A DNA stretch of 64,000 bases, from positions 56,966 through 120,965 of the forward strand of contig CP179889.1 in the NCBI GenBank assembly GCA_047456315.1, in the 5' to 3' direction. How positions within the stretch are numbered: position 1 is the stretch's first letter; the number at the start of each line of letters is the position of its first letter. Under the pieces are notes generated by a model. The model was not told the DNA's origin, made no database searches, and worked only from the letters and a program-made list of their open reading frames with translations. Origin of the DNA: Candidatus Nealsonbacteria bacterium. Its GTDB lineage: Bacteria > Patescibacteriota > Minisyncoccia > Minisyncoccales > JANBVM01. The translations under genes and the position numbers were made by a program. Shown here one piece after another: positions 21,160-55,859 of the stretch.

Positions 21160-24100
21160 TTAGCTTCCGACCTTTTTAATAAATAACTGCAGTTTCTGGC
21201 CGTTAATAATAACCTGTTTTCCTTTTTTCAATTCTTTAACTAAATCCAGGTCCTTTGCCTTTGTTTCTTTGTTAATCATCTTTTCTTTTCTTAGCAACAG
21301 CTCGCTCATATCATGCTCTGCCTTGAATTGAATTATAATAACATCTTTTGGAGTTAGTTTCCTGCTCTTTCTCATTTCTTGAATGTTTCTAATAACCTCT
21401 CTTGTTATTCCCTGCTCTTGCAGTGATTTAGTGATTTCTGTGTTTAGTTTTATCTGTTCTCCAAAACCAATGTCTAAAACATTGACTTCCTTTTTAATTA
21501 AATCTAAAAGCTCTTTTTCATTTTTTAATTCTTTATCTTTGATTGTTAATTCTTGCAGAGCCTGTCTTACTTTTATTTGAGCTTTTGCTCTTTCAGCTAA
21601 ACCTAGTTTTACTATTTCTCTTGCTTTTTCCATCTTTTTATTCAATTCCTCATCAATAGATTTTTTAGTTGCTTTAGGCCAATCCTCTAAATGAATTGAT
21701 TCTTTTGTTTCTAATCCTGATTTTTTAAAATCCTGATATATATATTCAGTAAAAAAAGGAATAAAGGGAGCTGATAATTTTATTGTTTGAAAGATTACAA
21801 AACTCAGAGTTCCAGCAGCATCTCTTAATTCTTCTTCATTCTCAGGCTGCTGAAATCTTTTCCTTGACCTTCTGATGTACCACAAAGAAAGTTCATTCAT
21901 AACAAACTTTTCAATACTTCTGGCTGCACCGGTTATATCATAACTTTCCAGCAATTTAGTGGTTTTTACAACCAACTCATTAAGTTTAGAAATAATCCAT
22001 TTGTCTAAAATATGCTTGGAGCAGGGATTTTCAAAACTCAAGAACTCATCATCAGCATAAGTTTTTAAAAATATATAAGAATTCCATAAAGGAAGAATGA
22101 ATTTTCTTAAAACATTTTCAGGATCTTTCTCCGAGAATAGCTTAGAATCACCAGGATGACTAGAAGTGTAAAATGACCACCTTAAGGCATCAGTTGAGTA
22201 TTTTTCAATAATATACCAGGGATCAATTATATTTCCTTTTGATTTTGACATTTTTTCACCTTTTTCATCCAAAATATGGCCCAAAGAAACAACGTTTTTA
22301 TATGCTGGCCCTTTTCCAAGCAAAGTAGAAATAGCAAGCAAAGTATAAAACCAGCCCCTAGTCTGGTCTATTGCCTCGCAGATATAATCAGCAGGAAACT
22401 GCTTGTTTTCGTCAATCAGTTTTCTATTCTCAAAAGGATAATGATATTGAGCAAAAGGCATTGCTCCTGAATCAAACCAGCAGTCAATTACTTCTTCAAC
22501 TCTTTCCATTAAAGCTTGGCAGCTTGGACACTGAAACTTTACATTATCAATAAAAGGCCTGTGCAAATCCAACTCTAAGTTTTTATTAAAAGGCAATATC
22601 CTAAACTCTATGTTTTCTAATTTGCCTGTTTTTGTTCTATTTCCTTTTTCCCGCCACTTTAAAATCTTTTCAAGCGACCATCCTTCTAAGGTTTTCTTTA
22701 AAATAGCTAAAGGAAGTCCATGAGAAATAATTAAAATATTCTTTCCTTTGTATTTCTCATCAGTTTCCTTTAAGAAACTGTACATTCTTTTTTTAATATC
22801 TCTTACACTTTCACCTTTTGGAGTTTTTGTTTCTGTTAAACTTCCTTGTTTTTTAAAATAATCCCAAACTAATTTTGGCGCCTTGCCGTTAAAAATACCA
22901 ACATTAAACTCCCTTATTTTTTTGCTGAATTTAACTGGAGCTTTGGTTATTTCAGCTATAATCTCAGCAGTTTGTTTTGTTCTTAATAAGTCAGAAGAGA
23001 AAATAAGGTCCAAGCCCTGTTTTTCCAATTTATCTCCTACTTTTTTTGATTCTTCTTTCCCTTTATCAGTTAAAGGGCATTGAAATTTCTCAGGCCAGCA
23101 CGATGTAACTCCTTTCACTTGTTTTACACTTTCACCATGACGAACTGTAAAATAATTATTATTAGTGAACCTCTGCTTCAACAAATCATCAACACCGCCA
23201 ATTACCACCTGGTTTTTACAATGAGCGCACTGCCAGATAGGAAGAGGGGTTCCCCAATATCTTTCTCTTGAAATTGCCCAGTCTTTAACCTCTTTTAACC
23301 ATCCGCCAAATCTTCCTTTTTTAAGATAAGATGGATACCAATTTATCTTTAAATTATTAGCAATTAAGTCCTTTTTAACTTTTGTCATTTCTATAAACCA
23401 GCTCTTTTTTGCGTAATAAAGAAGCGGTGTCTTGCATCTCCAGCAAAATGGATAATCATGTTCATAAAGTTCTTGCTTGAACAACAACCCTCTTTCTTCT
23501 AAATCTTCAATTATCAATGGGTCAGCTTCTTTGAAATACATTCTTGCCCATTTTTCAACATTTAATCTAAATCTCCCCTCGTCATCAATATTCAATAAAA
23601 TTGGCAGTTTATTCTTTTTACCAGCTTCCATATCATCTATGCCATAAGCAGGAGCGATATGAACAAGGCCTGTTCCTTCATCTAAAGAAACAAAATCTCC
23701 CCCAATAACCTTGTAAGCATTTCTTGAAACTTCATCTTCCGCTGGATACAGAACTTCGTACCTTAAATTAAACAAATCCTTTCCTTTGAATTCCTGGATA
23801 ATTTCACCTTCAAGCCCTAATTCCTTAATTCTTTCTTTTGCTAATATTAAATACTCCTCATTAATTTTGATTTTTGCATAAATAAATTTAGGATTTACTG
23901 CCACAGCTACATTTCCAGGCAATGTCCAGGGAGTAGTTGTCCATACTAAAAAAGAAGTATTCTTAAAATTAGGGCTGATAATCTTAAGCTTGATAAAAAC
24001 TGATGGTTCTTTTATCTTTTTATACCCTTGAGCCACTTCATGAGACGAAAGAGGAGTCCCGCATCTGGGACAATAGGGAACAACCTTAAAGTCCTGAATT

Positions 24101-24597
24101 AAGAGCTTTTTCTCCCAGATTTGTTTTAATATCCACCATAATGACTCAACATATTCAGCATTATAGGTAATGTAAGGATTATTAATATCAACCCAGTAAC
24201 CGATTTTCTCTGTTAAATCTACCCAGTCCTTTGTAAAATTCCAAACAGATGTTTTACATTTTTTATTGAACTTAGAAATACCATATTTTTCAATGTCTTT
24301 TTTTGATTTAAGCCCTAGTTTTTTTTCAATCTGAAGTTCAACAGGAAGACCATGGGTGTCCCAGCCACCTTTTCTTAAAACCCTGAAACCCTTCATTGTC
24401 TTGTATCTGCAGATTATGTCTTTAAAAATTCTGGCTAAAACATGATGAAGTCCTGGAGGCGCATTAGCAGTAGGAGGGCCTTCATAAAACACAAAATCAC
24501 GAGCTTTAGCTCGTTGTTTTATGCTTTTTTCAAAGATTTTATTATCTTTCCAGAATTTTAAAATTTTCTTCTCTGTTTTAGTAAAATTGAAATTCAT
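21160..24597 (-). CDS. ileS: isoleucyl-tRNA synthetase (type 2) with an inserted histidine-phosphatase (PGAM-like) domain
   Basis: 1145 aa. It has a HIGH-region, the RERYWGTPLPIW and DLHRPFID motifs, WFDSGAMPFAQ and KMSKSKGN. About 200 aa between residues ~478-675 carry RHGES...SSDLLRTKQTAEII...ISHG. Confidence 0.93.
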   Translation of the reverse strand: MNFNFTKTEKKILKFWKDNKIFEKSIKQRAKARDFVFYEGPPTANAPPGLHHVLARIFKDIICRYKTMKGFRVLRKGGWDTHGLPVELQIEKKLGLKSKKDIEKYGISKFNKKCKTSVWNFTKDWVDLTEKIGYWVDINNPYITYNAEYVESLWWILKQIWEKKLLIQDFKVVPYCPRCGTPLSSHEVAQGYKKIKEPSVFIKLKIISPNFKNTSFLVWTTTPWTLPGNVAVAVNPKFIYAKIKINEEYLILAKERIKELGLEGEIIQEFKGKDLFNLRYEVLYPAEDEVSRNAYKVIGGDFVSLDEGTGLVHIAPAYGIDDMEAGKKNKLPILLNIDDEGRFRLNVEKWARMYFKEADPLIIEDLEERGLLFKQELYEHDYPFCWRCKTPLLYYAKKSWFIEMTKVKKDLIANNLKINWYPSYLKKGRFGGWLKEVKDWAISRERYWGTPLPIWQCAHCKNQVVIGGVDDLLKQRFTNNNYFTVRHGESVKQVKGVTSCWPEKFQCPLTDKGKEESKKVGDKLEKQGLDLIFSSDLLRTKQTAEIIAEITKAPVKFSKKIREFNVGIFNGKAPKLVWDYFKKQGSLTETKTPKGESVRDIKKRMYSFLKETDEKYKGKNILIISHGLPLAILKKTLEGWSLEKILKWREKGNRTKTGKLENIEFRILPFNKNLELDLHRPFIDNVKFQCPSCQALMERVEEVIDCWFDSGAMPFAQYHYPFENRKLIDENKQFPADYICEAIDQTRGWFYTLLAISTLLGKGPAYKNVVSLGHILDEKGEKMSKSKGNIIDPWYIIEKYSTDALRWSFYTSSHPGDSKLFSEKDPENVLRKFILPLWNSYIFLKTYADDEFLSFENPCSKHILDKWIISKLNELVVKTTKLLESYDITGAARSIEKFVMNELSLWYIRRSRKRFQQPENEEELRDAAGTLSFVIFQTIKLSAPFIPFFTEYIYQDFKKSGLETKESIHLEDWPKATKKSIDEELNKKMEKAREIVKLGLAERAKAQIKVRQALQELTIKDKELKNEKELLDLIKKEVNVLDIGFGEQIKLNTEITKSLQEQGITREVIRNIQEMRKSRKLTPKDVIIIQFKAEHDMSELLLRKEKMINKETKAKDLDLVKELKKGKQVIINGQKLQLFIKKVGS

Positions 24598-25782: not shown

Positions 25783-26301
25783 ATGTTAAAGCTAATTACT
25801 ACCGTTTTTATTTCATTGCTTATTATTGTCGGTATAAGCTACGGAGCAAACCATTATATCGTTGCTCCAGCAACAGAAAACACAAAAGACGCTGGCATTC
25901 AAATAATAGAAAAGGAGGTTGGCGAAGATTTTGAAATAGTCTTGGAGGCCAATCCCACTACCGGCTATCAGTGGACAGTGGAGTTTGATGAAGAATTTAT
26001 TGAATTGGTTGACAGAAACTATATTGTCCAGGAGCCAACCTTTTCAAAAGATGCAATGGTTGAATCTGTTATGGCTTCCAGAGATGGAGAAATTCCGACC
26101 GAGGATCTTCCTGATGGAGCAAGAGAGATTATTGACAGCGAGATTGAAGAGGGAACAATAGGGTTAGTCGGAGCAGGCGGCCAGGAATTCTTCAAATTCC
26201 TTGCCCTGAAAAAAGGAGATGTAGAAATAAGGTTTTCTTACGAGAGATCTTGGGAGGAAGAACCTATTAAAATCCTGACCTACAAAGTGATAATCAAGTA
26301 G
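25783..26301 (+). CDS. chagasin-family (MEROPS I42) cysteine-protease inhibitor, secreted
   Basis: Signal/TM N-terminus, the NPTTGYQW signature motif, a GAGG loop; size of 172 aa; followed by an AGCAGGG/CCCTGCT terminator at 26310-26340. Confidence 0.75.
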   Translation: MLKLITTVFISLLIIVGISYGANHYIVAPATENTKDAGIQIIEKEVGEDFEIVLEANPTTGYQWTVEFDEEFIELVDRNYIVQEPTFSKDAMVESVMASRDGEIPTEDLPDGAREIIDSEIEEGTIGLVGAGGQEFFKFLALKKGDVEIRFSYERSWEEEPIKILTYKVIIK

Positions 26302-29285: not shown

Positions 29286-30461
29286 TTATTTTTTTATTCT
29301 ATTGTGCAGTCTCATATGACCCTCTTGAATTCCTTCTGAGACCAAAGCTCTTAGCGCTGCTAGGTTTTGAGCCAGACCAACACCAGCCATCACACAAGCT
29401 AATTCCTGGGCTGATTTCACGTTTAATATCTTTAAAGAAACCCTTGCTACTGGATTAGCTGATACTGTTCCCCCAATTATTCCAACTGCTATTGGAACTG
29501 TCATCTCTCCAATTAAATCTCCGCTACTGCTCTTTGTCCATCTGGTCAAGGGCAAGTATTTCCCTGATTTTGCTGCATAACCATGGGCTCCTGCTTCAAG
29601 AGCTCTCCAATCATTTGAAATGGCTAAAGCAACTGCCCCCATTCCATTTAAAATACCTTTATTATTAGTCACAGCCCTATAGATATCAATTTCAGCTATA
29701 GCTTGAGCTTTAATAATATCTTCAACTACTTGTTTACCTTTAAATCCTTTTGTTGTTAAAGATTCTTTTAAAACTTTTCCTTTAACTTTTACTAATCTTT
29801 TGTCAGCTAAATTAGAAACAATTTTAAGAACTGCTTTTTTGTTGACAATCTTTTCAATCAAAGGAGAAACACCTTCGAGCATTGTGTCTACTGTATTAGC
29901 TCCCATAGCATCTTTAGTATCTACCAGCAAATGAATTCTTAAAATTGCCCCTATATTTTTATTATTTAAAACAGTTATTTCTAAATCTTTTGCACCAGCG
30001 CCCATTCTTATTAAATCAGGTTGTTTGGAATTAGCTAGTTTAATAATCTCTTTTTTATTTTCTAAAATCTTTTCTTTAATTTTTTGAATATTTTCTATTT
30101 CCGTTAAATAAATCTGTCCTATCATCTGATTACCCAAATTCTCAGCTTCAATCCCTCCATTTTCTCTTAAAAGCTTTGCTCCATAGCAGGCTGCAGCAAC
30201 TACAGAAGGCTCTTCAGTTACCATTGGCACCAGATAATCCTTTTTATTTATCAAAAAGTTTACAGCAATACTATAAGGAAGCGAGAAAACACCAATCACA
30301 TTTTCAGCCATCCTGTCTCTTATTTCTGGCTTTAATGTGCCCTTTTCAATGATTTCAATTTCCTTGTCAGTTAAATCAGCAAATTCTTTTACTTTTTTAA
30401 GTTTTTGTTCTTTGTTTAGCTTAAAAAAACCAGGGATTCTGCTGTTTTTTTTCTTATCCAT
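29286..30461 (-). CDS. mvaA: hydroxymethylglutaryl-CoA reductase, class II
   Basis: ENVIGVFSLPYSIAVNFLINKKDYLVPMVTEEPSVVAAACYGAKL matches class II HMGR. The start is assigned to MDKKK (the ORF-track start is 84 nt further upstream). Confidence 0.88.
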   Translation of the reverse strand: MDKKKNSRIPGFFKLNKEQKLKKVKEFADLTDKEIEIIEKGTLKPEIRDRMAENVIGVFSLPYSIAVNFLINKKDYLVPMVTEEPSVVAAACYGAKLLRENGGIEAENLGNQMIGQIYLTEIENIQKIKEKILENKKEIIKLANSKQPDLIRMGAGAKDLEITVLNNKNIGAILRIHLLVDTKDAMGANTVDTMLEGVSPLIEKIVNKKAVLKIVSNLADKRLVKVKGKVLKESLTTKGFKGKQVVEDIIKAQAIAEIDIYRAVTNNKGILNGMGAVALAISNDWRALEAGAHGYAAKSGKYLPLTRWTKSSSGDLIGEMTVPIAVGIIGGTVSANPVARVSLKILNVKSAQELACVMAGVGLAQNLAALRALVSEGIQEGHMRLHNRIKK

Positions 30462-30500
30462 TAATTTAAGCTTATCCGATTTTTCTGCTAAAATCAAAGT

Positions 30501-30941
30501 ATGAAAATAATTACTGAGAACAAAAAAGCATATTTTAATTACCAAGTCCTGGAAAAATTTGAAGCAGGCATTTCTTTAATTGGACAGGAAGTAAAATCAA
30601 TTAAACTGGGAAAAATCAACCTGGCCGGAGCTTATGTCGTTCTAAGAAGGGAAGAAATCTATTTAATTGGAGCTAATGTTCCACCCTATCAGCCAAAAAA
30701 TGCACCTAAAGATTACGACTCTAAAAGGCCAAGAAAACTTCTTCTCAGAAAAAAAGAAATTAAATATTTAATAGGAAAATCAAGGCAAAAAGGTTTGACA
30801 ATGATACCTTTAATAATCTATACTAGGAAAGGTAAAATAAAGCTGGAATTCGGTTTAGCTAAGGGAAAGCGAAAATTTGATAAAAGAGAAGCTATAAAAA
30901 AAAGAGAAGTTCAAAGAGAAATCAAAAGAACATTAGGATAA
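30501..30941 (+). CDS. smpB: SsrA-binding protein SmpB
   Basis: 146 aa with NKKAYFNYQVLEKFEAGISLIGQEVKS, typical of SmpB. Confidence 0.92.
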   Translation: MKIITENKKAYFNYQVLEKFEAGISLIGQEVKSIKLGKINLAGAYVVLRREEIYLIGANVPPYQPKNAPKDYDSKRPRKLLLRKKEIKYLIGKSRQKGLTMIPLIIYTRKGKIKLEFGLAKGKRKFDKREAIKKREVQREIKRTLG

Positions 30942-30945
30942 AAAT

Positions 30946-31285
30946 GGGGACGTCAAGATTCGACAGGAATTTGAATAAAAAATGCAAGTCGAGCTTCGAA
31001 TCTCGTAAATCTTCGAAACAACATTAAGTGCCAATAACTTATTTGCACCCGCATTAGCTACTGCTTAATGCCGTCTGCCTTACTGATTCTCGATAGGTAA
31101 AAGCGGGCGTGATATTATCGGGATAGATAGTTTTTTAGGAACTGGGAAAACTATCAAAAATCAACAGAACAAAAATCAGAAAAATTTTGTCCAGTTTAAA
31201 TTTTCTGAGTTCAACTAACTGGGCTAAACTTGTAGAGTTATTTTAGAATAATTCCTGGACAAGGGGGCAGATCCCTTCGTCTCCA
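30946..31285 (+). ncRNA. ssrA: tmRNA (transfer-messenger RNA, ssrA)
   Basis: 5' GGGGACGUCAAGAUUCGACAGG (compare consensus GGGGCUGAUUCUGGAUUCGACGGG). The 3' end AAGGG-GGCAGAU-CCCUU-CGUCUCC-A gives an acceptor stem GGGGACG/CGUCUCC with a G3-U70 pair and discriminator A. It sits directly downstream of smpB. Candidate tag frame: GCC AAT AAC TTA TTT GCA CCC GCA TTA GCT ACT GCT TAA. Confidence 0.8.
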
Positions 31286-31287
31286 CT

Positions 31288-31788
31288 ATGTTTAAAATGG
31301 TAAAAACAAGTTATGGGAAAATAAAAAACCTTTCTAGCCCAGAGGCGGCTTATACGGCTGGCTTAATTGATGGAGACGGTACAATTGCTTTGAGTCGCTC
31401 TCAAAGCAAGAATCGAAATAAAAAAGAGTATCGCAGATTAGAAGTTAAAATAAGCAATACAGATTTTAATCTACTTAGTTATATTAAAAATATAGTCGGT
31501 GCCGGACAGATATCAAAGAAAAGGCCGCGCAATGAAAGACAGTCAATATCTTACGCATACAGAATCTGTAATCGACAAGCATTCAATCTTTTAACTCAGA
31601 TTTCATCCTGTCTTAAAACCTATAAGCAAAAACGTGCGAGGCTAGTTTTAGAAAATTATATAGAATTAACTCCCCGCAACGGAAAGTATTCCCAGGAAAT
31701 CCTTGCCAGAAAAAAACGATTCGTGAAAGCTTTTTTCGCTATACCATCGACAATGAAAATAAAGCCGAAAATCGCAAAATATTATTAG
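31288..31788 (+). CDS. LAGLIDADG-family homing endonuclease (single-motif, I-CreI-like size)
   Basis: 166 aa with AAYTAGLIDGDGTIAL (the LAGLIDADG motif). It starts 3 nt after the tmRNA 3' end. Confidence 0.75.
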   Translation: MFKMVKTSYGKIKNLSSPEAAYTAGLIDGDGTIALSRSQSKNRNKKEYRRLEVKISNTDFNLLSYIKNIVGAGQISKKRPRNERQSISYAYRICNRQAFNLLTQISSCLKTYKQKRARLVLENYIELTPRNGKYSQEILARKKRFVKAFFAIPSTMKIKPKIAKYY

Positions 31789-37062: not shown

Positions 37063-38016
37063 TCATTCTATTCTAACCCCTTCAGCTAGAATCTTTGCTT
37101 TAATTATGACGCCTCCTGTCTTTTCTATCGCTTTTTCTACATTATGAAAATTTTCTTTACTAGTTATAGCAATCATACAATCCCCTCCACCAGCTCCTGA
37201 TAGTTTAGCACCATAAGCACCAGCATCTAAAGCTGCTTTTATTAAACCCTCAAGCTCTTTAGAACTAACATCAAGTTTTCTTAAAAAATCCTGGTTTAAA
37301 TTCATAAGTTTTCCAACTTGTTTCCAATTTTCAGTTTTCAATTCATTTCTTGCCAAATTCACAATATTTTCAATCTCATTAAAAATATTATTTATTTTAT
37401 CAGGGTCTTTTGACTTTTTCTCAGAAACCATTTTCACTAAAGTTGGCGTATCAGCTTTAATACCAGTATAACCAATAACTAAAGGAATGCTTTTAATATC
37501 AATAGGTTTAATAATTTCCCCGCCTGTTTTAAAAAATAAGATTCCTCCATAAACTGCAGCTGCCACATCAAACCCTGAGCCCAATCCCTGAACATCTAAA
37601 ACAGTCTTATATGAAAGATTAAAGATTTCTTTTTCATTCATCTTTATCTTAAATAACTCTGATAGTCCTTTAATAGCTGCCACAACCACAGCAGAAGAAC
37701 TACCCAGACCAATCTTATCTGAAAATTCACTTTTAGTTTTAATATCCAGGCCGGATTTAACATCATATTTTTTAAAAAAATTCCTTATGGCAGTTAAAAT
37801 AAAGCTCACCTTTTTAAGATGAGTTTTTTCTAAATCAGATATATTTTTATTCTCAATATTAAGCTCTGGTGCATCTAGAATAAGGTTGTTGTCATTTCTT
37901 TTTTCAATAGAAACACTAATTCTATGCTCAACAGAAGCCACAATACATGGCTTATTATAAATAACAGCGTGTTCACCAAATAGCATTAGTTTTCCTGGTG
38001 CTGAAGTTTTAATCAT
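37063..38016 (-). CDS. mvk: mevalonate kinase (GHMP kinase)
   Basis: APGKLMLFGEHAVIYNKP and the GHMP motif GLGSSSAVVVA. Confidence 0.85.
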   Translation of the reverse strand: MIKTSAPGKLMLFGEHAVIYNKPCIVASVEHRISVSIEKRNDNNLILDAPELNIENKNISDLEKTHLKKVSFILTAIRNFFKKYDVKSGLDIKTKSEFSDKIGLGSSSAVVVAAIKGLSELFKIKMNEKEIFNLSYKTVLDVQGLGSGFDVAAAVYGGILFFKTGGEIIKPIDIKSIPLVIGYTGIKADTPTLVKMVSEKKSKDPDKINNIFNEIENIVNLARNELKTENWKQVGKLMNLNQDFLRKLDVSSKELEGLIKAALDAGAYGAKLSGAGGGDCMIAITSKENFHNVEKAIEKTGGVIIKAKILAEGVRIE

Positions 38017-38017
38017 C

Positions 38018-39010
38018 TTAAAACAAATGTTTCTTAATTAATTCTGGACCTTGTCCGGGCTTACAAATAATAACTTGTTTTACACCATTAAGAGATTGCA
38101 GTCTCTTTTTAACTTCTTCAGCCTGATTTTCTAAACAAATAACCTTAACCTGAGGGCCAGCGTCTATAGTAAAATAACACTCTAAACCTTGTTCTCTCCA
38201 TTCTAATATTGAGTGTATTATTTTTAATGTTACTGGATGCCAATAAATTATTGGAGGATTTGTTGTAATCATTGTTGAATGCATTTTTAAGCAATTCATC
38301 TCAGCTGTGCTTCCAACCAGAGTAATGTCTTTTTTAAGAATGCCTTGCTTTACGTTATCTAAATCTCTTTCTATTGTATTAAGCCAGGATTTATACATAG
38401 GTGAAGTTTCAACAGTTTTAGCCATGCCAGCACGGCTGGAAACTTTCTTGGCTTTAGTTGAAACAATAGTGACAATCATTCGAAATTCTGGCCAATAATC
38501 AGCGAGAGCAATTTGTTTAGCGTAACTGTCAGTCCCGTTTCGTTTTTCTCCTTTAACCCACTCTACAAATCCCTCTAAACAGCTTCTCGTAGAGGAACCG
38601 CTTCCCTGACGAGAAACAATAGATAATTCCTTTGAATCTAAATTCATTCCAAGTGCTTTTGTTGCAGCAAGGGTTAGGGCTGCAAAGCCTGAAGCTGAGC
38701 TTGCCAATCCTGCTGCTGTTGGAAAATTGTTTTTGCTGACAATTCTTGCTTTTTTATTAACTCCTGCTATTTTTTTGATTAAATCCAGATGACGGATTAA
38801 CTTTTCCAGTTCTTTCCCTTTTTTGATTTCCTGACCATCTAGAATAAAAACATCTTGGTCATATCCATTAAACTCAACGGTTGTAATAGTGCTTAATCCA
38901 TCCAAAGTCAAAGAAATAGAGCTGTTATAAGGCAAGAATAGTTCTGGATCTCTTTTGCCCCAGTATTTTACAAGAGCAATATTGGCATTAGCTATAGCTG
39001 TTTTTTTCAT
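38018..39010 (-). CDS. mvaD: diphosphomevalonate decarboxylase
   Basis: NIALVKYWGKRD...PTAAGLASSASGFAALTLA matches MVD family motifs. Confidence 0.88.
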   Translation of the reverse strand: MKKTAIANANIALVKYWGKRDPELFLPYNSSISLTLDGLSTITTVEFNGYDQDVFILDGQEIKKGKELEKLIRHLDLIKKIAGVNKKARIVSKNNFPTAAGLASSASGFAALTLAATKALGMNLDSKELSIVSRQGSGSSTRSCLEGFVEWVKGEKRNGTDSYAKQIALADYWPEFRMIVTIVSTKAKKVSSRAGMAKTVETSPMYKSWLNTIERDLDNVKQGILKKDITLVGSTAEMNCLKMHSTMITTNPPIIYWHPVTLKIIHSILEWREQGLECYFTIDAGPQVKVICLENQAEEVKKRLQSLNGVKQVIICKPGQGPELIKKHLF

Positions 39011-40020
39011 ATAATCTCAACTCCTTTTACTCCAATTTTTGCCTGGAAAGACTTAAAACCATTGTTCCTGAAAACATTTTTTAAGTTAAGTATGCTTTCT
39101 TTATCTTTTGTCAAAATCAAGCAGCACCCTCCGCCCCAGGCCCCGGTTGGCTTGACTCCCAGGGCATTGTTTTCTAAAGCAATCTCAACTATTTTATCTA
39201 GTTCGGGAATTGAAATATCTAACTTTTTTAACTCTTTGTAATACTGCGTCATTAAAACGCCCAAATCATTTAAGTTTTTTGAAATTAAAACATTTAAAGC
39301 TTTTTTTGAAATATCATCTAAAGAATTCAAAACAGAATTAACAAACCGAGGATTTTCTTCTCTTTGTTTTCTAACAAAAGAAACCATCTCAGATGTTTTA
39401 ACTTTTTTATCACTATCAACTATTAACAAGGGAATTTCAAAGTTAATTGTTAAAGGATCCACGCCTTCTGACTTTTTATACTTTACATAGCCCCCAAAAG
39501 TAACAGCATTATTATCAATACCAGAAGGAGTGCCTCCGTGAGCTATTACATCGCCCTGGTAGGCAAAATCAGAAACATCTGTTTTAGAAAAATCTTTTGT
39601 TAAATAGTTTAGCGCTCCTAAACTAATGGCTGAGAAAACTGATGAGCTTGAGCCTAAGTTCTTGGGCACTTGAGAATTAATTTCAATATCTAAACCCTTA
39701 AATCCATGTTTTTGAAAAATACTGCTGAGAACAAAAAAGCTTGGAATTAATTCATTGTCCTTATAAATTTCTTTTATTTTATCAAAGTTCTTTTCTTTTA
39801 TGAGAACGCTTATTTCTTTATATAAGTCAAAAAGCTCTTTTTCTTTTAAAGAGCGGTTCATATTCAAGTTTTTGGAATTTATTAAAACTACTCCCTTATC
39901 AGAAAGAGAAAACCTTACATTGCACCTTTTATCAATGCTACAAGCAATGCCTAGTTTATCATAAACAACTGCATGTTCTCCAAACAGAATGATTTTACCC
40001 GGAGAAGATGTAGTTATCAT
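39007..40020 (-). CDS. GHMP-family kinase, probable phosphomevalonate kinase (second mevalonate-pathway kinase)
   Basis: SPGKIILFGEHAVVYDK and GHMP motif PKNLGSSSSVFSAISLGA; overlaps the mvaD start by 4 nt (operon). Confidence 0.7.
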   Translation of the reverse strand: MITTSSPGKIILFGEHAVVYDKLGIACSIDKRCNVRFSLSDKGVVLINSKNLNMNRSLKEKELFDLYKEISVLIKEKNFDKIKEIYKDNELIPSFFVLSSIFQKHGFKGLDIEINSQVPKNLGSSSSVFSAISLGALNYLTKDFSKTDVSDFAYQGDVIAHGGTPSGIDNNAVTFGGYVKYKKSEGVDPLTINFEIPLLIVDSDKKVKTSEMVSFVRKQREENPRFVNSVLNSLDDISKKALNVLISKNLNDLGVLMTQYYKELKKLDISIPELDKIVEIALENNALGVKPTGAWGGGCCLILTKDKESILNLKNVFRNNGFKSFQAKIGVKGVEII

Positions 40021-48583: not shown

Positions 48584-49345
48584 TCAGTGATTTATGAAAT
48601 TTTGCTCATCAATGACGATGGTTGACTTTGAAGGTACTGCTTTTTGAACTACTAACTTCTTTGCAACTATGTAAATGTTTTGACGATACTTTCCTTTGTT
48701 TTTAATAATTCCTAATTTTTCAATTTCAAAACCTGCCTCTTTAATTAATTTCCCAAGTTCTCTTTTTGAAAACCAATGATAATATCTCTGAGCTTTTTTA
48801 CCCCAGGGCTCAAAAAGATCTTTCCAGTCTAGTTTTGATTTTCCAATTAGTTTTAAAAGTGTATATTTAACTAATAAAAATATTTCTTTTATTTGATGGA
48901 ATTGCCAGACAGTTAAAATTAACAAGCCTCCTGGCTTTAACACTCTTTTTGCCTCATTTAAAAACTGGAGTCTTAATTCTTTTGATGGAATATGATGAAG
49001 CACTGCAATGTTGTAAACTGCGTTAAAGTAACTGTCAGGGAAAGAAAGCTTTAAAGCATCCTCAACCCTAAAATCTGCTTCAGGATATCTTTCCCTTGTA
49101 AGTTCAACTAATCTTTTAGAACTATCAATACCAATGTATTCAACCTGCTTTTCTTTAAAAAGAGGGTAATATCTTCCATTACCGCAGCCTGAATCCAATA
49201 CCTTGTCACCAGGAACTAAGTAGTCATCAAATAAAAATATAATTTCTTCCCATGTTTTTTCCCTGGTTCTTGAAAATTCTTCAGCAATTAAGTTGTAATC
49301 CTCCCTGGTTTTAACTAATAAATAATGTGCGTATTCTAGATTCAT
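48584..49345 (-). CDS. class I SAM-dependent methyltransferase
   Basis: Motif I VLDSGCGNGRY. Confidence 0.75.
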   Translation of the reverse strand: MNLEYAHYLLVKTREDYNLIAEEFSRTREKTWEEIIFLFDDYLVPGDKVLDSGCGNGRYYPLFKEKQVEYIGIDSSKRLVELTRERYPEADFRVEDALKLSFPDSYFNAVYNIAVLHHIPSKELRLQFLNEAKRVLKPGGLLILTVWQFHQIKEIFLLVKYTLLKLIGKSKLDWKDLFEPWGKKAQRYYHWFSKRELGKLIKEAGFEIEKLGIIKNKGKYRQNIYIVAKKLVVQKAVPSKSTIVIDEQNFINH

Positions 49346-49346
49346 A

Positions 49347-50909
49347 ATGAAATATCAAAAATTAATAATTGAAGATTTAATTGAGAGAAGAATTAAAAAC
49401 TCTTCTGATTTGGCTGTCTTTAAAAGGCGGATTTCAAAAAAGTATAAGATTCTTACTCCAAGTAATATCCAATTATTAAAAGCTTATCATGAATTAGCAA
49501 GGAAAAAAAGTATTAAAAAATCAAAAGCTATTGAAGAGCTGCTTAAAACAAGACCTATCCGTTCTTTATCAGGAATTGTAAATATCTCAGTTTTAACAAA
49601 ACCTTATCCTTGCCCAGGAAAATGTATTTACTGCCCCTTAGAAAAAGGGCTTCCAAAAAGCTATTTATCAGGGGAGCCAGCAGTCCAGCGCGCCAAGGCA
49701 TTAAACTTTGATCCTTACAATCAAACAAAACAACGCATTAAAATGCTGAGGCAAGCTGGTCATCCAACTGATAAAATTGACTTTAGGGTTATTGGAGGAA
49801 CATGGTCATATTATCCCAAAAACTATCAGACAAGGTTTATTAAAAGATGCTTTGATGCTTGCAATAAAAAAACAAGCAATAACTTAACCCAAGCCCAGAA
49901 GCTAAATGAATCAGCGAAGCATAGAATAATTGGTCTGTCTGTTGAAACAAGGCCTGATTTTATTAATGAGAATGAAATTAAAAGATTAAGAAATTTAGGA
50001 ATTACAAAAGTAGAGCTTGGTGTCCAAAGCACAGATGATAATGTTTTGAAACTAAACCTTAGAGGACACAAGGTTAAAGAAACCATAAAAGCCACTAAGC
50101 TATTAAAAAATGCTGGTTTTAAAATCTCTTATCAAATAATGCCTAACTTGCTTGGCTCAACCCCTAAGAAAGATATTAAATCGATTAAGACCATTTTCTC
50201 TGATGAAAGATTCAGGCCAGATTTAATTAAAATATATCCCTGCGCCCTAGTAAAAGAAGCTCCTCTTTATAGGTTGTATAAAAAAGGAAAGTACAGACCA
50301 TATTCTTTAAAAGTATTAATTAAAATACTTTGTGAGATAAAAAAACAAATCCCATATTACACAAGGATTGAAAGAATCATCAGAGATATTCCTGCGCCAA
50401 AAATAGTAAAAGGACCTGTTAAAATATCTAATTTAAGAGAGGTTGTTGGTGAACAGTTAGAAAAACAAGGGTATAAATGTAAATGCATCAGGTGCAGAGA
50501 AATAAAAGCGAAATATGATTCAAAAGAAAAAATATACTTGTTCAGAGAAGATTATAATGCTTCAGGAGGAAAAGAAATCTTTCTAACTTTTGAAAATAAA
50601 AACAGAACCAAGCTTTACAGTTTGTTAAGGTTGAGGATTCTATCTGGCAAGATGTTTCTACCTGTTTTAAGAAATAGCGCTATAATTCGTGAAATTCATA
50701 CTTACGGACAGCTTATTCCAATCTCTAAAAAAGGAGCTTCGGCCCAGCATAAAGGATTGGGTAAAAAACTAATTCAAAAAGCTGAAAATATTACTGAAAA
50801 TGAATTTGGTCTTAAAAAAATTACTGTTATTTCAGCAGTGGGCGCCAGAGGTTACTGGAGAAAATTCAACTATAAGCTAAAAGAAACCTACATGGTTAAG
50901 CTGCTCTAA
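49347..50909 (+). CDS. elp3: Elp3-like radical SAM / GNAT acetyltransferase (tRNA U34 carboxymethyluridine synthase homolog)
   Basis: 520 aa with a radical-SAM cluster motif (CPGKCIYCP) and a C-terminal GNAT domain. Confidence 0.8.
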   Translation: MKYQKLIIEDLIERRIKNSSDLAVFKRRISKKYKILTPSNIQLLKAYHELARKKSIKKSKAIEELLKTRPIRSLSGIVNISVLTKPYPCPGKCIYCPLEKGLPKSYLSGEPAVQRAKALNFDPYNQTKQRIKMLRQAGHPTDKIDFRVIGGTWSYYPKNYQTRFIKRCFDACNKKTSNNLTQAQKLNESAKHRIIGLSVETRPDFINENEIKRLRNLGITKVELGVQSTDDNVLKLNLRGHKVKETIKATKLLKNAGFKISYQIMPNLLGSTPKKDIKSIKTIFSDERFRPDLIKIYPCALVKEAPLYRLYKKGKYRPYSLKVLIKILCEIKKQIPYYTRIERIIRDIPAPKIVKGPVKISNLREVVGEQLEKQGYKCKCIRCREIKAKYDSKEKIYLFREDYNASGGKEIFLTFENKNRTKLYSLLRLRILSGKMFLPVLRNSAIIREIHTYGQLIPISKKGASAQHKGLGKKLIQKAENITENEFGLKKITVISAVGARGYWRKFNYKLKETYMVKLL

Positions 50910-50941: not shown

Positions 50942-51814
50942 TTAGAAAAGTTTTGTTATAAAATAACCGATTATTGAAAATAGCGCAATGGACGGCAAGG
51001 CTGGAATTGCTTTTCGATGTTTTTGAGAAATAAAAAACAAAAAACCAGCTAAAAGTCCAAGCAAAGAAAATAAAGCAACAATTAAGGACTTAATAATTCC
51101 ATGAGGAATTAAAGAAACGCTAAAAAGCAACGGGAAAACTATATCCCCTGCGCCCAAAACCATAAATTTCCCGCCAGGAGTTATTTCTTTTAAATTACTA
51201 CTAAAAGAAACTATGTCAGGAGGAATAACCAGTCCCAAAATAGCACGACTCTCAATCATTCCTTTTGCAATTTCAACCATGTGCTTTGTCTTATAAACCG
51301 CAATAACATCATAGATTGAAAAAACCACCAATAACACTGCTACCACTCCAGGGGTAAAACTCAAGCCCAAGACACTGCCAGCTCCTGCTACTGCTAAAAT
51401 CATTAACAAATCCTGAATAAAAATAGATGGCCGTTTAATCCACCAGAAAATTAAAAGACCCATTAAAACTAAAGCATAAATATCTGAAATCCAAATACTT
51501 AACGTTAATATTCCACCCATCAAAACAGTTGAAATAAAAAGTAATTTAAAGACAGCTGTTTTTTGTTTTCGGAACTTAATAAAACGAGTTAAAAGAAAAA
51601 TAAATAAGGTGGCTAGAAGAAAATAAACAATGAATTGAATAAAAGGGAATTCAACAACTTCAATTTTTTCAATTTCTAAAACCCTGGTAATTTTCAATGA
51701 GTTAATAATTCCCAGACCTAAAGCTGAAAGAAATAAAAAGCCCTCAATAATAAAAACTTTCCATGTTAAAACAGGGAATCTATCAGAAGAATTATCTGAA
51801 GTAGAATCAGGCAT
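50942..51814 (-). CDS. presenilin/signal-peptide-peptidase-like (A22 family) intramembrane aspartyl protease
   Basis: Polytopic membrane protein carrying YD (FSIYDVIAVY), GxGD (LGAGDIVFP) and PAL (AIPALPSIALF) motifs in the canonical order. Confidence 0.7.
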   Translation of the reverse strand: MPDSTSDNSSDRFPVLTWKVFIIEGFLFLSALGLGIINSLKITRVLEIEKIEVVEFPFIQFIVYFLLATLFIFLLTRFIKFRKQKTAVFKLLFISTVLMGGILTLSIWISDIYALVLMGLLIFWWIKRPSIFIQDLLMILAVAGAGSVLGLSFTPGVVAVLLVVFSIYDVIAVYKTKHMVEIAKGMIESRAILGLVIPPDIVSFSSNLKEITPGGKFMVLGAGDIVFPLLFSVSLIPHGIIKSLIVALFSLLGLLAGFLFFISQKHRKAIPALPSIALFSIIGYFITKLF

Positions 51815-51815
51815 C

Positions 51816-52013
51816 TTATTTTTCTTTGGTCAATTTCAAAATCTCGCTAGCTGGATAATGAGGCGCTATTCTCTTAATTTTATCTAAAATCTTTTCTTTT
51901 TCAGATTTACTTTTTGCCTCAAGATACCCGTCTTTCAGCTTTTTGATCTTCTGCCTTTTCTTTCTCTTAGCCCTTATTTCAAATTGTCTTCTTTTAACAG
52001 AACCTTTACCCAT
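51816..52013 (-). CDS. small lysine-rich protein
   Basis: 65-aa ORF immediately downstream of the Nif3 gene. Confidence 0.35.
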   Translation of the reverse strand: MGKGSVKRRQFEIRAKRKKRQKIKKLKDGYLEAKSKSEKEKILDKIKRIAPHYPASEILKLTKEK

Positions 52014-52019
52014 AATTCG

Positions 52020-52976
52020 TTATTTATTAATTCGTGAAATCCTAATTAAACCTGAACATGAAATAATTTCAATTCCTCTACGTTCAAGTTCATCTAAAAA
52101 AAGATTAATGCCCAGGGAGTCTGAACTCATGTGTCCGGCAATAACAACATTGACATTAGCTGCTTCAGCCTCTTTTTTATGTTCCTCTGAAATGTGCATT
52201 CCGATTGTTGTTCCAACTCCAGCTATGGCAATTTTCTCGTATAGCTTGGAAGAACCCTCTGTTCCACCGGTTATTTCTGTTAAAGCTATCTTGCCGCAGC
52301 GGTTTTCTTTGTTTCCAGCAAATATCTTAGGACCTGCTCCGATTTTCATTGCGTGTCTGTACTCTGGAATTGTTTTTAGAAATTCAACTAAATCCTCAAT
52401 CCTTATTAAATCATGCTTTTTTTCTTCAATTTTGTCTTTTAAAAACTTAGCTGCTAAATTATCACAGGCTGTATGAAGACACATTAAATTAAAGCCTAAT
52501 AGCTTTGCCGCATCAATTGTTCTTTGGTGATTTAGCTTGTTAACACCGCGAGCCACTTCTGAGATTTTTTCTCTCATCAAACCCTCAGCAACATTTATTG
52601 GAACTCCATACATATTTAAAATATCACACTGCAGGTCCATTACATCGTATAGATTAGCCAGGGCCTTGCCCAATGGATGATGGGAAATAACTAAATCAAT
52701 ATTTCCAAGCTCTTTGGCTAACAGAATTTCAGCTGGTTCAATATCAATACCCATTAAGATTCTTTTTATTTCTTTATCTTGGGCAATATATAGAATCTGG
52801 GAATCAGAATAAGGATTTTTTAAAGTTTCTTTATCAAAAAACTGCTTTTGTTTTTCAGACAGCTTTTCATATTTCTTTCTTCTTCTTTGAAGAAGTTTCT
52901 CAATAAACTCTCTTCCCCTGAAATCAGCCTCAATCCCTTTATTTATTGCCAGATTATATATTTCTTGAATCCTCAT
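52020..52976 (-). CDS. Nif3-family (DUF34/YqfO-like) dinuclear-metal-centre protein
   Basis: 318 aa; LVISHHPLGKALANLYDVMDLQ is the Nif3 signature; a domain is inserted in the middle. Confidence 0.7.
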   Translation of the reverse strand: MRIQEIYNLAINKGIEADFRGREFIEKLLQRRRKKYEKLSEKQKQFFDKETLKNPYSDSQILYIAQDKEIKRILMGIDIEPAEILLAKELGNIDLVISHHPLGKALANLYDVMDLQCDILNMYGVPINVAEGLMREKISEVARGVNKLNHQRTIDAAKLLGFNLMCLHTACDNLAAKFLKDKIEEKKHDLIRIEDLVEFLKTIPEYRHAMKIGAGPKIFAGNKENRCGKIALTEITGGTEGSSKLYEKIAIAGVGTTIGMHISEEHKKEAEAANVNVVIAGHMSSDSLGINLFLDELERRGIEIISCSGLIRISRINK

Positions 52977-53167: not shown

Positions 53168-54607
53168 TTATTCACCTTTGACTACAGCTAAAGGTACTAA
53201 TTTTGCCACTTTTTTAGACAACTTAGCGTTGTGAACCACATCAATCACACTTTCAATGTCCTTGTATGCTTGGGGAGCTTCCTCAGCAATTCCACGATTG
53301 CTCCAGCACTTAACAATAATTCCTTTTTGTTTTAACGTTTTTACAACATTTTGTCCAGAGATTGTTCTTGTCGCCTGTTTTCTTGACATTGTTCTTCCAG
53401 CACCATGACAAACACTGTGCCAAGCTTCTTTAGACCCTTTAGTCCCTGCTAAAACGTATGATGATGTTCCCATGCTCCCTGGCACTAACACAGGTTGTCC
53501 GCTCTCTTGATATTCTTTGGGAATCTCAGGATGATTTGGGGGAAAAGCTCTAGTTGCTCCTTTTCTATGAATACATAACTTCATAGTTTTACCATCAATC
53601 TCATGTTCTTCGATTTTAGCAATGTTATGAGCAACATCATAAAGAAGACGCAGATTTTGTTTTTCTCCTAATATTTTCTTCCACACTTGCCTTATATAAA
53701 AAGTTATCATTTGACGATTAGCCCAGGCATAGTTTGCGCCGGCAGACATTGCCTGGAAAAATCTTTTGCCTTCTTCAGAATTAAAAGGAACGCATGATAA
53801 TTCTCTATCTGGGACCTTAATTTTATACCTTGACATAGCTTGAGCCGTTACTCTTAAATAATCTGAACAATTTTGATGGCCAAGTCCACGAGAGCCGGTA
53901 TGTATCATTATTACAACCTGGTCTTTGAATAATCCAAACACATTAGCTATATCTTCATCAAAAATAGCATCTACCCTTTGAATTTCACAGAAGTGGTTGC
54001 CACTACCAAGAGTTCCAACTTGATTCCTTCCTCTGTTCTTAGCTCTATCAGAAACAAAAGAAGAATCTGCTTCTTCTAATTTTCCCCTAGACTCACAATT
54101 TTCAATATCTTCTTTATTGCCATATCCTTGTTTAACCAAATATTGAACCCCTTCTTCTAAGATTTTATTAATTTGAGCAATACTTAATTTAATTTTCCTT
54201 CCTCTTCCCAATCCTGATGGAATCTGCGCCTGAATTCCTGTAGCAAGTTCATCAAGGTGGTTTTTAATTTCTTCATAAGTTAAGCTTGATTTTAATAACC
54301 GAACGCCGCAGTTTTGATCAAAACCTATTCCAGAAGGTGAAATTACTCCGCTTGGAAACTTAGTCGCAGCCACACCACCAATAACAAATCCGTAGCCTGT
54401 ATGAATATCTGGCATGGCTAAAGAATATTTCACAATGCCTGGTAAAGCACAAACATTAATAACTTGTTCTAAAGCACCAGGCTCTATGGATTCCAACATT
54501 CTTTCTGAAGTATAAATTCTAGCTGGGACACGCATATCAGGCCTAAAGCTTTTAGGTATTTCCCATAACCAATTAGATATTTTTTTAAAATTATTTTTTG
54601 ATACCAT
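53168..54607 (-). CDS. rtcB: RNA-splicing ligase RtcB
   Basis: 479 aa with HTGYGFVIGG, CHGAGR and the Mn-binding His pattern. Confidence 0.9.
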   Translation of the reverse strand: MVSKNNFKKISNWLWEIPKSFRPDMRVPARIYTSERMLESIEPGALEQVINVCALPGIVKYSLAMPDIHTGYGFVIGGVAATKFPSGVISPSGIGFDQNCGVRLLKSSLTYEEIKNHLDELATGIQAQIPSGLGRGRKIKLSIAQINKILEEGVQYLVKQGYGNKEDIENCESRGKLEEADSSFVSDRAKNRGRNQVGTLGSGNHFCEIQRVDAIFDEDIANVFGLFKDQVVIMIHTGSRGLGHQNCSDYLRVTAQAMSRYKIKVPDRELSCVPFNSEEGKRFFQAMSAGANYAWANRQMITFYIRQVWKKILGEKQNLRLLYDVAHNIAKIEEHEIDGKTMKLCIHRKGATRAFPPNHPEIPKEYQESGQPVLVPGSMGTSSYVLAGTKGSKEAWHSVCHGAGRTMSRKQATRTISGQNVVKTLKQKGIIVKCWSNRGIAEEAPQAYKDIESVIDVVHNAKLSKKVAKLVPLAVVKGE

Positions 54608-55859
54608 AATTTAGTTTTTCGAATTCTTGTTTTACTATTTTTTTATCATCCCATGGGATTTTCTTGCCTTTTTCAATACATATCCAGGGCTCGCAACCTT
54701 TTCCTGTTATTATGACAACGTCATTGGTTTTTGCTTTTTTTAAAGCACTGTTTATTGCTTTTTCCCTGTCCATAATCTTTTCTGCCTTATTTTCAGCGCC
54801 TTGGGCAACTTGATCAATAATATCTTTTGGATTTTCATCATAAGGGTCTTCGTTTGTAATTATAATATGCTGGCAGTATTTTGCTGCAATTTTTCCCAAA
54901 ACAGGTCTTTTCCACTTATCCCTTCCTCCGCCAGCTGCACCCAGAACACAAATCATTTTAGGAGAATTAAAATTATTTTTAATTGAGCTGTAAACCTTTT
55001 CAAGAGCATTAGGAGTAAATGCATAATCAACAATAACCTTAAAAGGTGATGCAACAACTATTTCCATTCTGCCTGGTATATATTTTATCTTTTCTAAAGC
55101 TTTTTTACAGGTTTCTAAACTAATATCTTCCGACAAACCAACACAGATTGCTGCCAGGGCATTATAGACGTTAAACTTACCAATAAGATTAAGCTTAAAA
55201 TCAATGTTATTAACTTTAAAAATAGTGCTGTTTGGATTAGCTTCATAGTTTGTAGCAATCAGCTGATGGTCAATGTTTTTATTAGCTGTCAGACCATAAC
55301 CATATTTTTTATCAGCTTTATACTTTAAAAAATGATTAACATTTTTATCATCAGTATTAAGAACATGAACATCTTTTGTGATTTTAAAAAGTTCTTCTTT
55401 TGCCTGACGATATTTTTCAAAAGAGCCGTGCGCTTCAATATGCTCTGGGCTAAGATTTGTAAAAACTGCCAAGCTAAAATCAATAAATCTGTGGCGGTGC
55501 TGTTTTATACCCTCTGAAGTCACTTCTATAACAGCGTACTGGCACTTTGAATTAACTGCTCGCTTTAAAAGTTTCTGCAAAGTAAAACGCCCTGGCATTG
55601 TCATTTTAAGCATGTTTATCTCTTCTTTGTCAGCTATTTTAAATTTAATTGAGGACAAGGCAGCTATTTTAAAACCAGCTTGTTCTAAAATACTGGATAT
55701 CATCTCAATGACAGTTGATTTTCCATTGGTTCCAGTAACTCCAATAACTTTTAATTTTTTAGAAGGAAAACCATAAAGCACAGCTCCCAAAAAAGCTAGT
55801 AAAAAATGATACCAGTCCAATAAGAAATAAGGGATAAGTTTTTTAATAATTTGTTTCAT
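54591..55859 (-). CDS. Mur ligase family protein
   Basis: P-loop VIGVTGTNGKSTV plus Mur ligase middle and C-terminal domains; 422 aa. Confidence 0.65.
   Translation of the reverse strand: MKQIIKKLIPYFLLDWYHFLLAFLGAVLYGFPSKKLKVIGVTGTNGKSTVIEMISSILEQAGFKIAALSSIKFKIADKEEINMLKMTMPGRFTLQKLLKRAVNSKCQYAVIEVTSEGIKQHRHRFIDFSLAVFTNLSPEHIEAHGSFEKYRQAKEELFKITKDVHVLNTDDKNVNHFLKYKADKKYGYGLTANKNIDHQLIATNYEANPNSTIFKVNNIDFKLNLIGKFNVYNALAAICVGLSEDISLETCKKALEKIKYIPGRMEIVVASPFKVIVDYAFTPNALEKVYSSIKNNFNSPKMICVLGAAGGGRDKWKRPVLGKIAAKYCQHIIITNEDPYDENPKDIIDQVAQGAENKAEKIMDREKAINSALKKAKTNDVVIITGKGCEPWICIEKGKKIPWDDKKIVKQEFEKLNYGIKK

Follow-up and report, generated by a model that had tools for sequence, protein, structure and literature searches.

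Intramembrane aspartyl proteases of the A22 family are best known from archaea and eukaryotes, and the presenilin-type enzymes are central to Alzheimer research. A gene of this family lies in the 64,000-nucleotide stretch of a Candidatus Nealsonbacteria genome that was analysed here (contig CP179889.1; hereafter the window), and it raises the questions of which branch of the family its product belongs to, whether the gene is resident in its bacterial host, and what such an enzyme might do there. We know of no natural substrate or cellular role that has been established for any prokaryotic presenilin homologue.

The protein itself is already known. NCBI lists the identical sequence, on a contig of 647,540 bp, under the name 'MAG: presenilin family intramembrane aspartyl protease [Candidatus Nealsonbacteria bacterium]', and the presence of such proteins, which are common in CPR bacteria, has reportedly been published. 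Raut, Glass and Lieberman are said to have described, in 2021, IAP orthologues in uncultivated CPR bacteria and to have suggested transfer from DPANN archaea; we take the window gene to be one of these orthologues, and it shows no substantive difference from that clade as reportedly described. Our literature search on presenilin or IAP in Patescibacteria, CPR and DPANN returned only papers on the gut microbiome and Alzheimer's disease, or irrelevant ones. The window therefore adds an instance rather than a discovery, and what is contributed here is a prediction of orientation, a set of motif signatures for subclades (GGGD/IPALP, GSGD/MAALP and GTGD/MPALP), and a conserved genomic neighbourhood.

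Family Membership and Motifs

A single open reading frame occupies exactly 50942..51814 on the minus strand, with an ATG start and the stop codon inside the end coordinate, and encodes a protein of 290 aa with nine transmembrane (TM) helices. It is a real, full-length member of the presenilin/signal peptide peptidase (SPP) family (MEROPS A22, PF06550). The Pfam profile PF06550 ('Signal-peptide peptidase, presenilin aspartyl protease'), proposed as a check in the initial annotation of this DNA, matched at 75.9 bits, well above the gathering score of 23.9 (E = 5e-21), and the match spanned profile positions 35-280 of 283. When the single protein was compared with all PDB sequences by phmmer, the only match was the archaeal enzyme PSH (4HYC/4HYG/4Y6K; E = 4e-14), and in that alignment D169 and D224 fall on PSH D162 and D220. 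Since the Pfam match is this strong and the PDB match is restricted to archaeal PSH, the motifs and the family assignment are far beyond chance. A profile built from the alignment of relatives found PSH at E = 5e-19 and gave a weak match to the C-terminal fragment (CTF) of presenilin-1 (E = 0.12) that ran from GxGD to PALP. Against a profile of 13 archaeal PSH sequences, hhalign returned a probability of 98.7% for TM5-TM9 only, the four N-terminal helices (TM1-4) being too diverged for profile alignment. PF04258 was co-annotated on some close relatives.

The catalytic motifs each occur once in the translation and in the canonical order. The YD motif (Y168-D169; 51308..51313, minus strand) supplies the first catalytic aspartate in TM6, and the GxGD motif (G221-A-G-D224; 51143..51154, minus strand) supplies the second at the start of TM7, directly after a short beta-strand. 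The PALP motif (P271-A-L-P274; 50993..51004, minus strand) precedes TM9 and aligns with the PALP of the human presenilin-1 CTF (2kr6) and with the AGLP of PSH. Between TM6 and TM7 lies a loop of about 42 residues (176-217; 51164..51289, minus strand), short like that of PSH and predicted to be cytoplasmic, which contains the invariant KTKHM segment. A 15-residue hydropathy scan found nine hydrophobic segments, so that the open reading frame, its translation, the hydropathy profile and the structural model described below all bear out the earlier observation of YD, GxGD and PAL in canonical order within a protein of about nine TM helices.

While every sequence and structure feature of A22/PF06550 was found in the protein (the HMM match, aspartates on TM6 and TM7, PAL(P), a nine-TM fold, and both aspartates at the same predicted depth and face), three narrower assignments failed. 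The NCBIfam model NF041679, an equivalog for archaeal PSH, matched at 92 bits (E = 4.6e-26) and fell short of its cut-off of 125 bits, which is why NCBI names the CPR proteins without the term 'PSH'. The features of presenilin proper and an SPP-type orientation were likewise lacking, as described below.

Structural Model and Membrane Orientation

An AlphaFold2 (AF2) model, built on an alignment of 35 close relatives, had a mean pLDDT of 85.8 and a pTM of 0.85. It placed TM helices at residues 13-49, 58-78, 82-108, 111-127, 131-152, 155-175, 222-234, 240-263 and 273-289. A further helix (177-188) lies in a loop, and there are two short beta-strands (194-197 and 218-221). In this model D169 lies within TM6 (155-175) and D224 at the beginning of TM7, and PALP immediately precedes TM9 (273-289) and runs into its first residues. 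A Foldseek search of the PDB returned PSH, human SPPL2a or presenilin-1 (within gamma-secretase) for every match with E <= 0.2, with TM-scores on the target of 0.70-0.74 for PSH and 0.69-0.72 for SPPL2a; the next matches were unrelated GPCRs with TM-scores below 0.2.

The GxGD signature is also carried by the A24 enzymes, the type IV prepilin and preflagellin peptidases PilD and FlaK, which are common in bacteria. There is practically no chance that the window protein is one of these, and the A24 reading was ruled out by Pfam and Foldseek: the Pfam search gave no A24 match at E <= 0.01, neither PilD nor FlaK structures appeared among the 50 Foldseek matches listed, and only A22 proteins combine nine TM helices with PALP and KTKHM.

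Topology was predicted by counting lysine and arginine residues per loop over the 35 sequences, with the AF2 helices as boundaries. The N-terminus and loops 2-3, 4-5, 6-7 and 8-9 carried on average 2.7, 3.8, 0.7, 6.9 and 2.5 such residues (16.6 in total), against 2.9, 0, 0.1, 0 and 0 (3.0 in total) for loops 1-2, 3-4, 5-6 and 7-8 and the C-terminus. A bias in the same direction was seen in a broader set of 154 sequences and in PSH itself. By the positive-inside rule alone, the predicted arrangement is N-in/C-out with a cytoplasmic TM6-7 loop, which is the orientation of presenilin and PSH. D169 would then sit 6 residues inside TM6, counted from its cytoplasmic end, and D224 about 6 residues inside TM7, counted from its cytoplasmic start. 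The initial annotation had named aspartates predicted on opposite membrane faces as an example of a topology incompatible with the A22 fold; the model helices and the charge count (16.6 vs. 3.0) instead place both, among nine TM helices, at equal depth near the same, cytoplasmic, face.

Among characterised proteins the closest counterpart is PSH (MCMJR1) of Methanoculleus marisnigri (4HYG, 4Y6K), a member of the same Pfam family that is similar in length (301 aa vs. 290 aa), also has nine TM helices and a short TM6-7 loop, lacks partner subunits, and has the same predicted orientation. The YD...KTKHM and GxGD...P segments of the two proteins are nearly identical, and these PSH structures ranked first among the structural matches, at TM-scores on the target of 0.72-0.74. 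The differences are that the catalytic halves are only about 33% identical, that TM1-4 cannot be aligned by profile, that PSH has AGLP where the window protein has canonical PALP, and that PSH has GMGD where the window protein's group has GAGD or GGGD; in addition, the window protein scores below the NF041679 cut-off and its host is bacterial.

Presenilin-1 (A22A, gamma-secretase) shares the fold (Foldseek E = 2e-4 to 1e-2, TM-score 0.5-0.66), the YD and GxGD motifs, an exact PALP, the N-in/C-out orientation predicted here, and a beta-strand before GxGD, predicted in the window protein, that is comparable to the substrate-pairing strand in 6IYC and 6IDF. In contrast to presenilin-1, the window protein has neither the long cytosolic loop nor the autoproteolysis site, the partners nicastrin, APH-1 and PEN-2 are not expected in prokaryotes, and the sequences are only marginally similar (E = 0.12 to the CTF). 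A placement in presenilin proper (A22A) failed on the TM6-7 loop of about 42 residues; length and architecture match those of stand-alone PSH. SPP and SPPL2a (A22B; 9K92) are, like the window protein, stand-alone nine-TM GxGD proteases, with TM-scores of 0.69-0.72 in our search, but the window protein lacks the lumenal PA domain and the KKXX tail, and its predicted orientation is opposite to that of eukaryotic SPP. It was on this orientation, predicted over both the 35 and the 154 sequences, that a placement in SPP (A22B) failed.

Conservation of Catalytic Residues

Conservation was assessed in the alignment of 35 close relatives and in the broader one of 154 sequences, which comprised the window protein, 150 cluster representatives and three PSH sequences. 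Invariant among the 35 were F165, S166, Y168, D169, A172-M179 (AVYKTKHM), L220, G221, G223, D224, F227-L229 and I270-P274 (IPALP). In the broader alignment D169 was kept in 152 of the 154 sequences, D224, G221 and G223 in 150 each, and P274 in 148. This pattern is as expected of an active enzyme, and we infer from it that the family is apparently active. Degenerate motifs (YN, FI, GGE) were found in three of the 150 representatives (P0158, P0184 and P0229), which form a small nested group and may be pseudoproteases.

These three sequences indicate that loss of catalysis happens within the clade, and channel activity has reportedly been observed for archaeal GxGD proteases. Both points could be taken to mean that the window protein is a non-proteolytic derivative, a pseudoprotease, scaffold or presenilin-like ion-leak channel, in which the fold is kept and catalysis is not needed. 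We consider this very unlikely, as both aspartates, both glycines of GxGD and PALP are kept in the window protein and in nearly all of its relatives, and such invariance is expected only where catalysis is under selection.

Genomic Neighborhood

The host is a Patescibacteria (CPR) bacterium of Nealsonbacteria type, and the window contains bacterial markers that include tmRNA, ribosomal proteins S20 and L20, Mur ligase, IF3, GreA, the pol III delta subunit, Fpg and RecO; the initial report of a presenilin/SPP-type protease in a bacterial genome is upheld by these markers together with the PF06550 and fold matches. Upstream of the protease gene on the same (minus) strand lie a gene for a very basic 65-aa DUF6800 protein (51816..52013; PF20607, 35.1 bits), a NIF3-like gene (52020-52976), rtcB (53168-54607) and a Mur ligase gene (54591-55859). 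On the other side, on the plus strand, is the gene for Elp3, a radical SAM/GNAT tRNA U34 modification enzyme (49347..50909; TIGR01211, 549 bits vs. a cut-off of 350; PDB Elp3 matches at E = 1e-127), followed by a methyltransferase gene divergent from it (48584-49345) and, farther out, by genes for a SLOG protein, a small EF-Tu-domain-2-like protein, MgtC and a PHP-type protein.

The block as a whole recurs elsewhere. Within 6 kb of the protease in 80 inspected loci, Elp3 was found in 51, NIF3 in 50, Mur ligase in 43, the methyltransferase in 42 and RtcB in 41, and the protease was often flanked, on one side or the other, by extra inserted genes. At one Nealsonbacteria locus (L056) the protease has a tandem paralogue that is divergent and intact.

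The initial annotation had noted Elp3 beside the protease as a second gene of archaeal or eukaryal type. The adjacency stands, with a spacer of 32 nt in the window and co-occurrence in 51 of the 80 loci, but the notion of a shared archaeal-type module does not, as the two genes are convergent (tail-to-tail) and belong to a wider conserved block. For the same reasons the adjacency is lineage-wide synteny, and neither an operon nor the sign of a functional link; Elp3 was rejected as a functional partner on the convergent arrangement, the frequent insertions between the genes and the synteny of the whole block.

The DUF6800 gene is positioned differently. Only 1 nt separates its stop codon from the start codon of the protease gene, and because the genes are co-directional and this close they are likely co-transcribed. 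Simple promoter and terminator scans around the protease gene found no more candidates than did scans of shuffled sequence. In the 11 protease-anchored loci with a detectable DUF6800 gene, this gene was in every case the immediate upstream neighbor of the protease, whereas in metagenome loci anchored on DUF6800 the protease was adjacent in six of nine informative cases and absent from adjacency in the other three. On the strength of these three, DUF6800 was downgraded from obligate partner of the protease to synteny, and it is best described as a frequent, non-obligate neighbor that is possibly only syntenic.

Distribution and Origin

Homologues of the protease are numerous. A first search gave 597 proteins among the scored candidates, of which the best 120 were 54-100% identical to the query, and those with names were Patescibacteria, Paceibacterales or Nealsonbacteria. 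A scan of GTDB with two clade-specific peptide patterns, using one genome per species, identified at least 309 species representatives that encode a relative. Nearly all of the 80 loci inspected from these bore the label of a Patescibacteria lineage or of an unclassified 'bacterium'; among the lineages named were Nealsonbacteria (with two complete chromosomes), Staskawiczbacteria, Wildermuthbacteria, Paceibacter and Parcubacteria. Many of the 80 bore generic 'uncultured Candidatus Saccharibacteria' binchicken labels, which are probably placeholders since many of these loci had Nealsonbacteria-type synteny. One contig was labelled Bacillota and is probably mis-binned.

An exhaustive profile search of 1.84 billion cluster representatives (clustered at 50% identity) recovered 1425 clusters at E <= 1e-3, of which 822 reached E <= 1e-10 and 245 reached E <= 1e-30. 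In a neighbor-joining (NJ) tree, the kind of comparison with archaeal PSH that the initial annotation had proposed, the best 150 representatives all fell on one side of a long branch from the PSH of Methanomicrobiales. They were divided into subclades with GGGD or GAGD and IPALP (the window's group), GSGD and MAALP, and GTGD and MPALP. Identity to the window protein within the clade fell to about 30%. When the most basal clade representatives were used as seeds, the names retrieved were almost entirely of the Patescibacteria group (Patescibacteria group, Uhrbacteria, Parcubacteria), with one 'Binatia' and no archaeal names, and among the best 120 matches of a search seeded with PSH there were only Methanomicrobiales-type proteins. 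The description of the family as uncommon in bacteria consequently fails for the CPR lineage, with at least 309 GTDB species and 245 clusters at E <= 1e-30, but may hold outside it.

With the family best known from other domains, and with Elp3 and RtcB, which have archaeal or eukaryal affinities, as neighbors, the gene might be read as one recently acquired from archaea, or as part of an archaeal fragment that was mis-binned. This is highly improbable on several grounds. The GC content of the gene region (0.32) is that of its surroundings and unremarkable in a window that is uniform at 0.30-0.38; bacterial markers stand around the gene, with S20 and Mur ligase nearby and, at a distance of about 20 kb on this contig, tmRNA; and the gene order Mur-RtcB-NIF3-protease-Elp3-MTase is found again across the 80 loci, with protein identities of 40-86%. 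The clade is also internally deep, set off by its long branch from Methanomicrobiales PSH, and has basal members with almost only Patescibacteria-group names. Given that identity within the clade falls this low, the protease gene is old and widespread in the CPR radiation, and is neither a recent import nor a contaminant.

Discussion

The checks proposed in the initial annotation all favoured its reading. We consider it very probable that the window gene encodes a stand-alone di-aspartyl intramembrane protease of A22/PF06550, with a presenilin fold, in a Patescibacteria genome, and that it works by the mechanism proposed here. It belongs to the same Pfam family as PSH but to a distinct bacterial clade, and by analogy we propose a PSH-like mode of action. 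D169 on TM6 and D224 on TM7 would face one another in a water-accessible cavity open to the cytoplasm, where the two aspartates would activate water, and PALP at the N-terminus of TM9 would pack against and support the active site. A single-pass TM substrate helix would dock laterally and then unwind, as in PSH and gamma-secretase, and the unwound segment might pair with the short beta-strand before GxGD (218-221; a second strand lies at 194-197) before being hydrolysed inside the bilayer. The substrate-bound gamma-secretase structures 6IYC and 6IDF were among the fold matches, and the predicted strands resemble their arrangement. Partner subunits and autoproteolytic activation are not expected because the TM6-7 loop is short, and the enzyme would act without either. 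MCMJR1/PSH is active alone in vitro, and is the archaeal case in which aspartate-dependent intramembrane proteolysis sensitive to transition-state inhibitors was shown (PMC2947513). For a homologue from Haloferax the function is listed as unknown (PMC9263693).

The orientation bears on the likely substrates. Eukaryotic SPP is oriented oppositely to presenilin and cleaves type II segments and signal peptides. Because the orientation predicted for the window protein is that of presenilin and PSH, TM segments of type I orientation (N-out/C-in stubs) are more likely substrates than signal peptides, where the link from orientation to substrate is drawn by analogy with the eukaryotic enzymes. The same fold and chemistry could also serve a true signal peptide peptidase that clears type-II-oriented remnants after signal peptidase cleavage, and which might replace SppA or RseP in a reduced genome. 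The PF06550 family name mentions this activity, homologues in archaea have been put forward as candidate SPPs (PMC8305020), and broad conservation in small CPR genomes fits a housekeeping role. We nevertheless regard an SPP role as unlikely, as the predicted N-in/C-out arrangement and cytoplasmic TM6-7 loop point to an orientation opposite to that of eukaryotic SPP.

A more specific proposal extends the preferred reading of a presenilin-oriented protease, and is offered with little confidence. The Patescibacteria IAP clade might represent an anciently resident, presenilin-oriented 'stub-clearing' protease that takes part in surface remodelling of these episymbiotic bacteria. It could remove TM remnants of type I orientation, such as the C-terminal anchors that stay in the membrane once surface proteins have undergone sortase-type processing or ectodomain shedding. 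If this were true, a class of natural substrates would be assigned to a prokaryotic presenilin homologue for the first time, and bacteria would offer a model of substrate selection of the gamma-secretase kind.

Our findings indicate that a large bacterial radiation carries a conserved, stand-alone presenilin homologue that is apparently active, judging from its sequence, and that combines a predicted presenilin orientation with an exact PALP. The small PALP-bearing enzymes of CPR bacteria are therefore candidates for simple structural and mechanistic models, and may offer a route to the role of such a protease in a minimal cell.

Conservation and divergence of the protease

Directly upstream of the presenilin-family protease gene lies a gene for a very basic 65-aa DUF6800 protein (window 51816-52013, minus strand), and this arrangement recurs among relatives. 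DUF6800 was directly 5' of the protease in all 11 protease-anchored genome loci in which it was detectable, and when metagenome loci were instead anchored on DUF6800, the protease adjoined it in 6 of the 9 that were informative. Tandem presenilin-family genes were found in one Nealsonbacteria MAG (locus L056, 4503-5387 and 5454-6407), where the second copy shares about 29% identity with the window protein and retains the YD, GGGD and PALP motifs.

Nested in the bacterial protease clade was a small subgroup, comprising the cluster representatives P0158, P0184 and P0229 from the profile search and nearest to loci L057 and L058, in which the catalytic signatures are gone: YD is replaced by YN or FI, and GxGD by NGGD, GGLE or WGGE. 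The subgroup members may be pseudoproteases. Close relatives were also found on two short contigs with other phylum labels, one labelled "Bacillota bacterium" (L018, QLUR01000047.1) and one "Candidatus Binatia bacterium" (P0442, from the search seeded with basal clade members); these contigs are probably mis-binned Patescibacteria rather than true occurrences in Bacillota or Binatia.

Other features of the window

The window encodes a class I aminoacyl-tRNA synthetase of unusual architecture (1145 aa; 21160-24597, minus strand), with tRNA-synt_1, Anticodon_1 and DUF5915 domains and an inserted histidine-phosphatase domain (PF00300, 111 bits) that occupies residues 485-648 and splits the catalytic domain midway. 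An Rfam match indicated a complete tmRNA at 30946-31288 on the plus strand (139 bits), but ARAGORN detected none anywhere in the window; a LAGLIDADG homing-endonuclease ORF (31288-31788, plus strand) begins on the final base of the Rfam match. Also found on the plus strand were genes for a histone-deacetylase-family protein (5521-6618) and a chagasin-family (I42) cysteine-peptidase inhibitor (25783-26301). Minus-strand genes at 29286-30545 and 37063-40020 encode HMG-CoA reductase, two GHMP kinases and a diphosphomevalonate decarboxylase-like protein of the mevalonate pathway, which is usually tied to archaea and eukaryotes and is a further trait of this kind in the Nealsonbacteria genome.

The Elp3 gene (49347-50909, plus strand) is divergent from a Methyltransf_11 gene (48584-49345, minus strand), the two being spaced by 1 nt. 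The top PDB match of the Methyltransf_11 protein was the tRNA methyltransferase Trm9 (5CM2_Z, E = 1e-13), although other class I methyltransferases scored barely worse, and in 42 of the 80 related loci both genes lie within 6 kb of the protease. Taken together, the divergent pairing with Elp3, the best match to Trm9 and this recurrence suggest that in CPR bacteria the two genes form a pair for (m)cm5U wobble modification in the style of eukaryotes and archaea.
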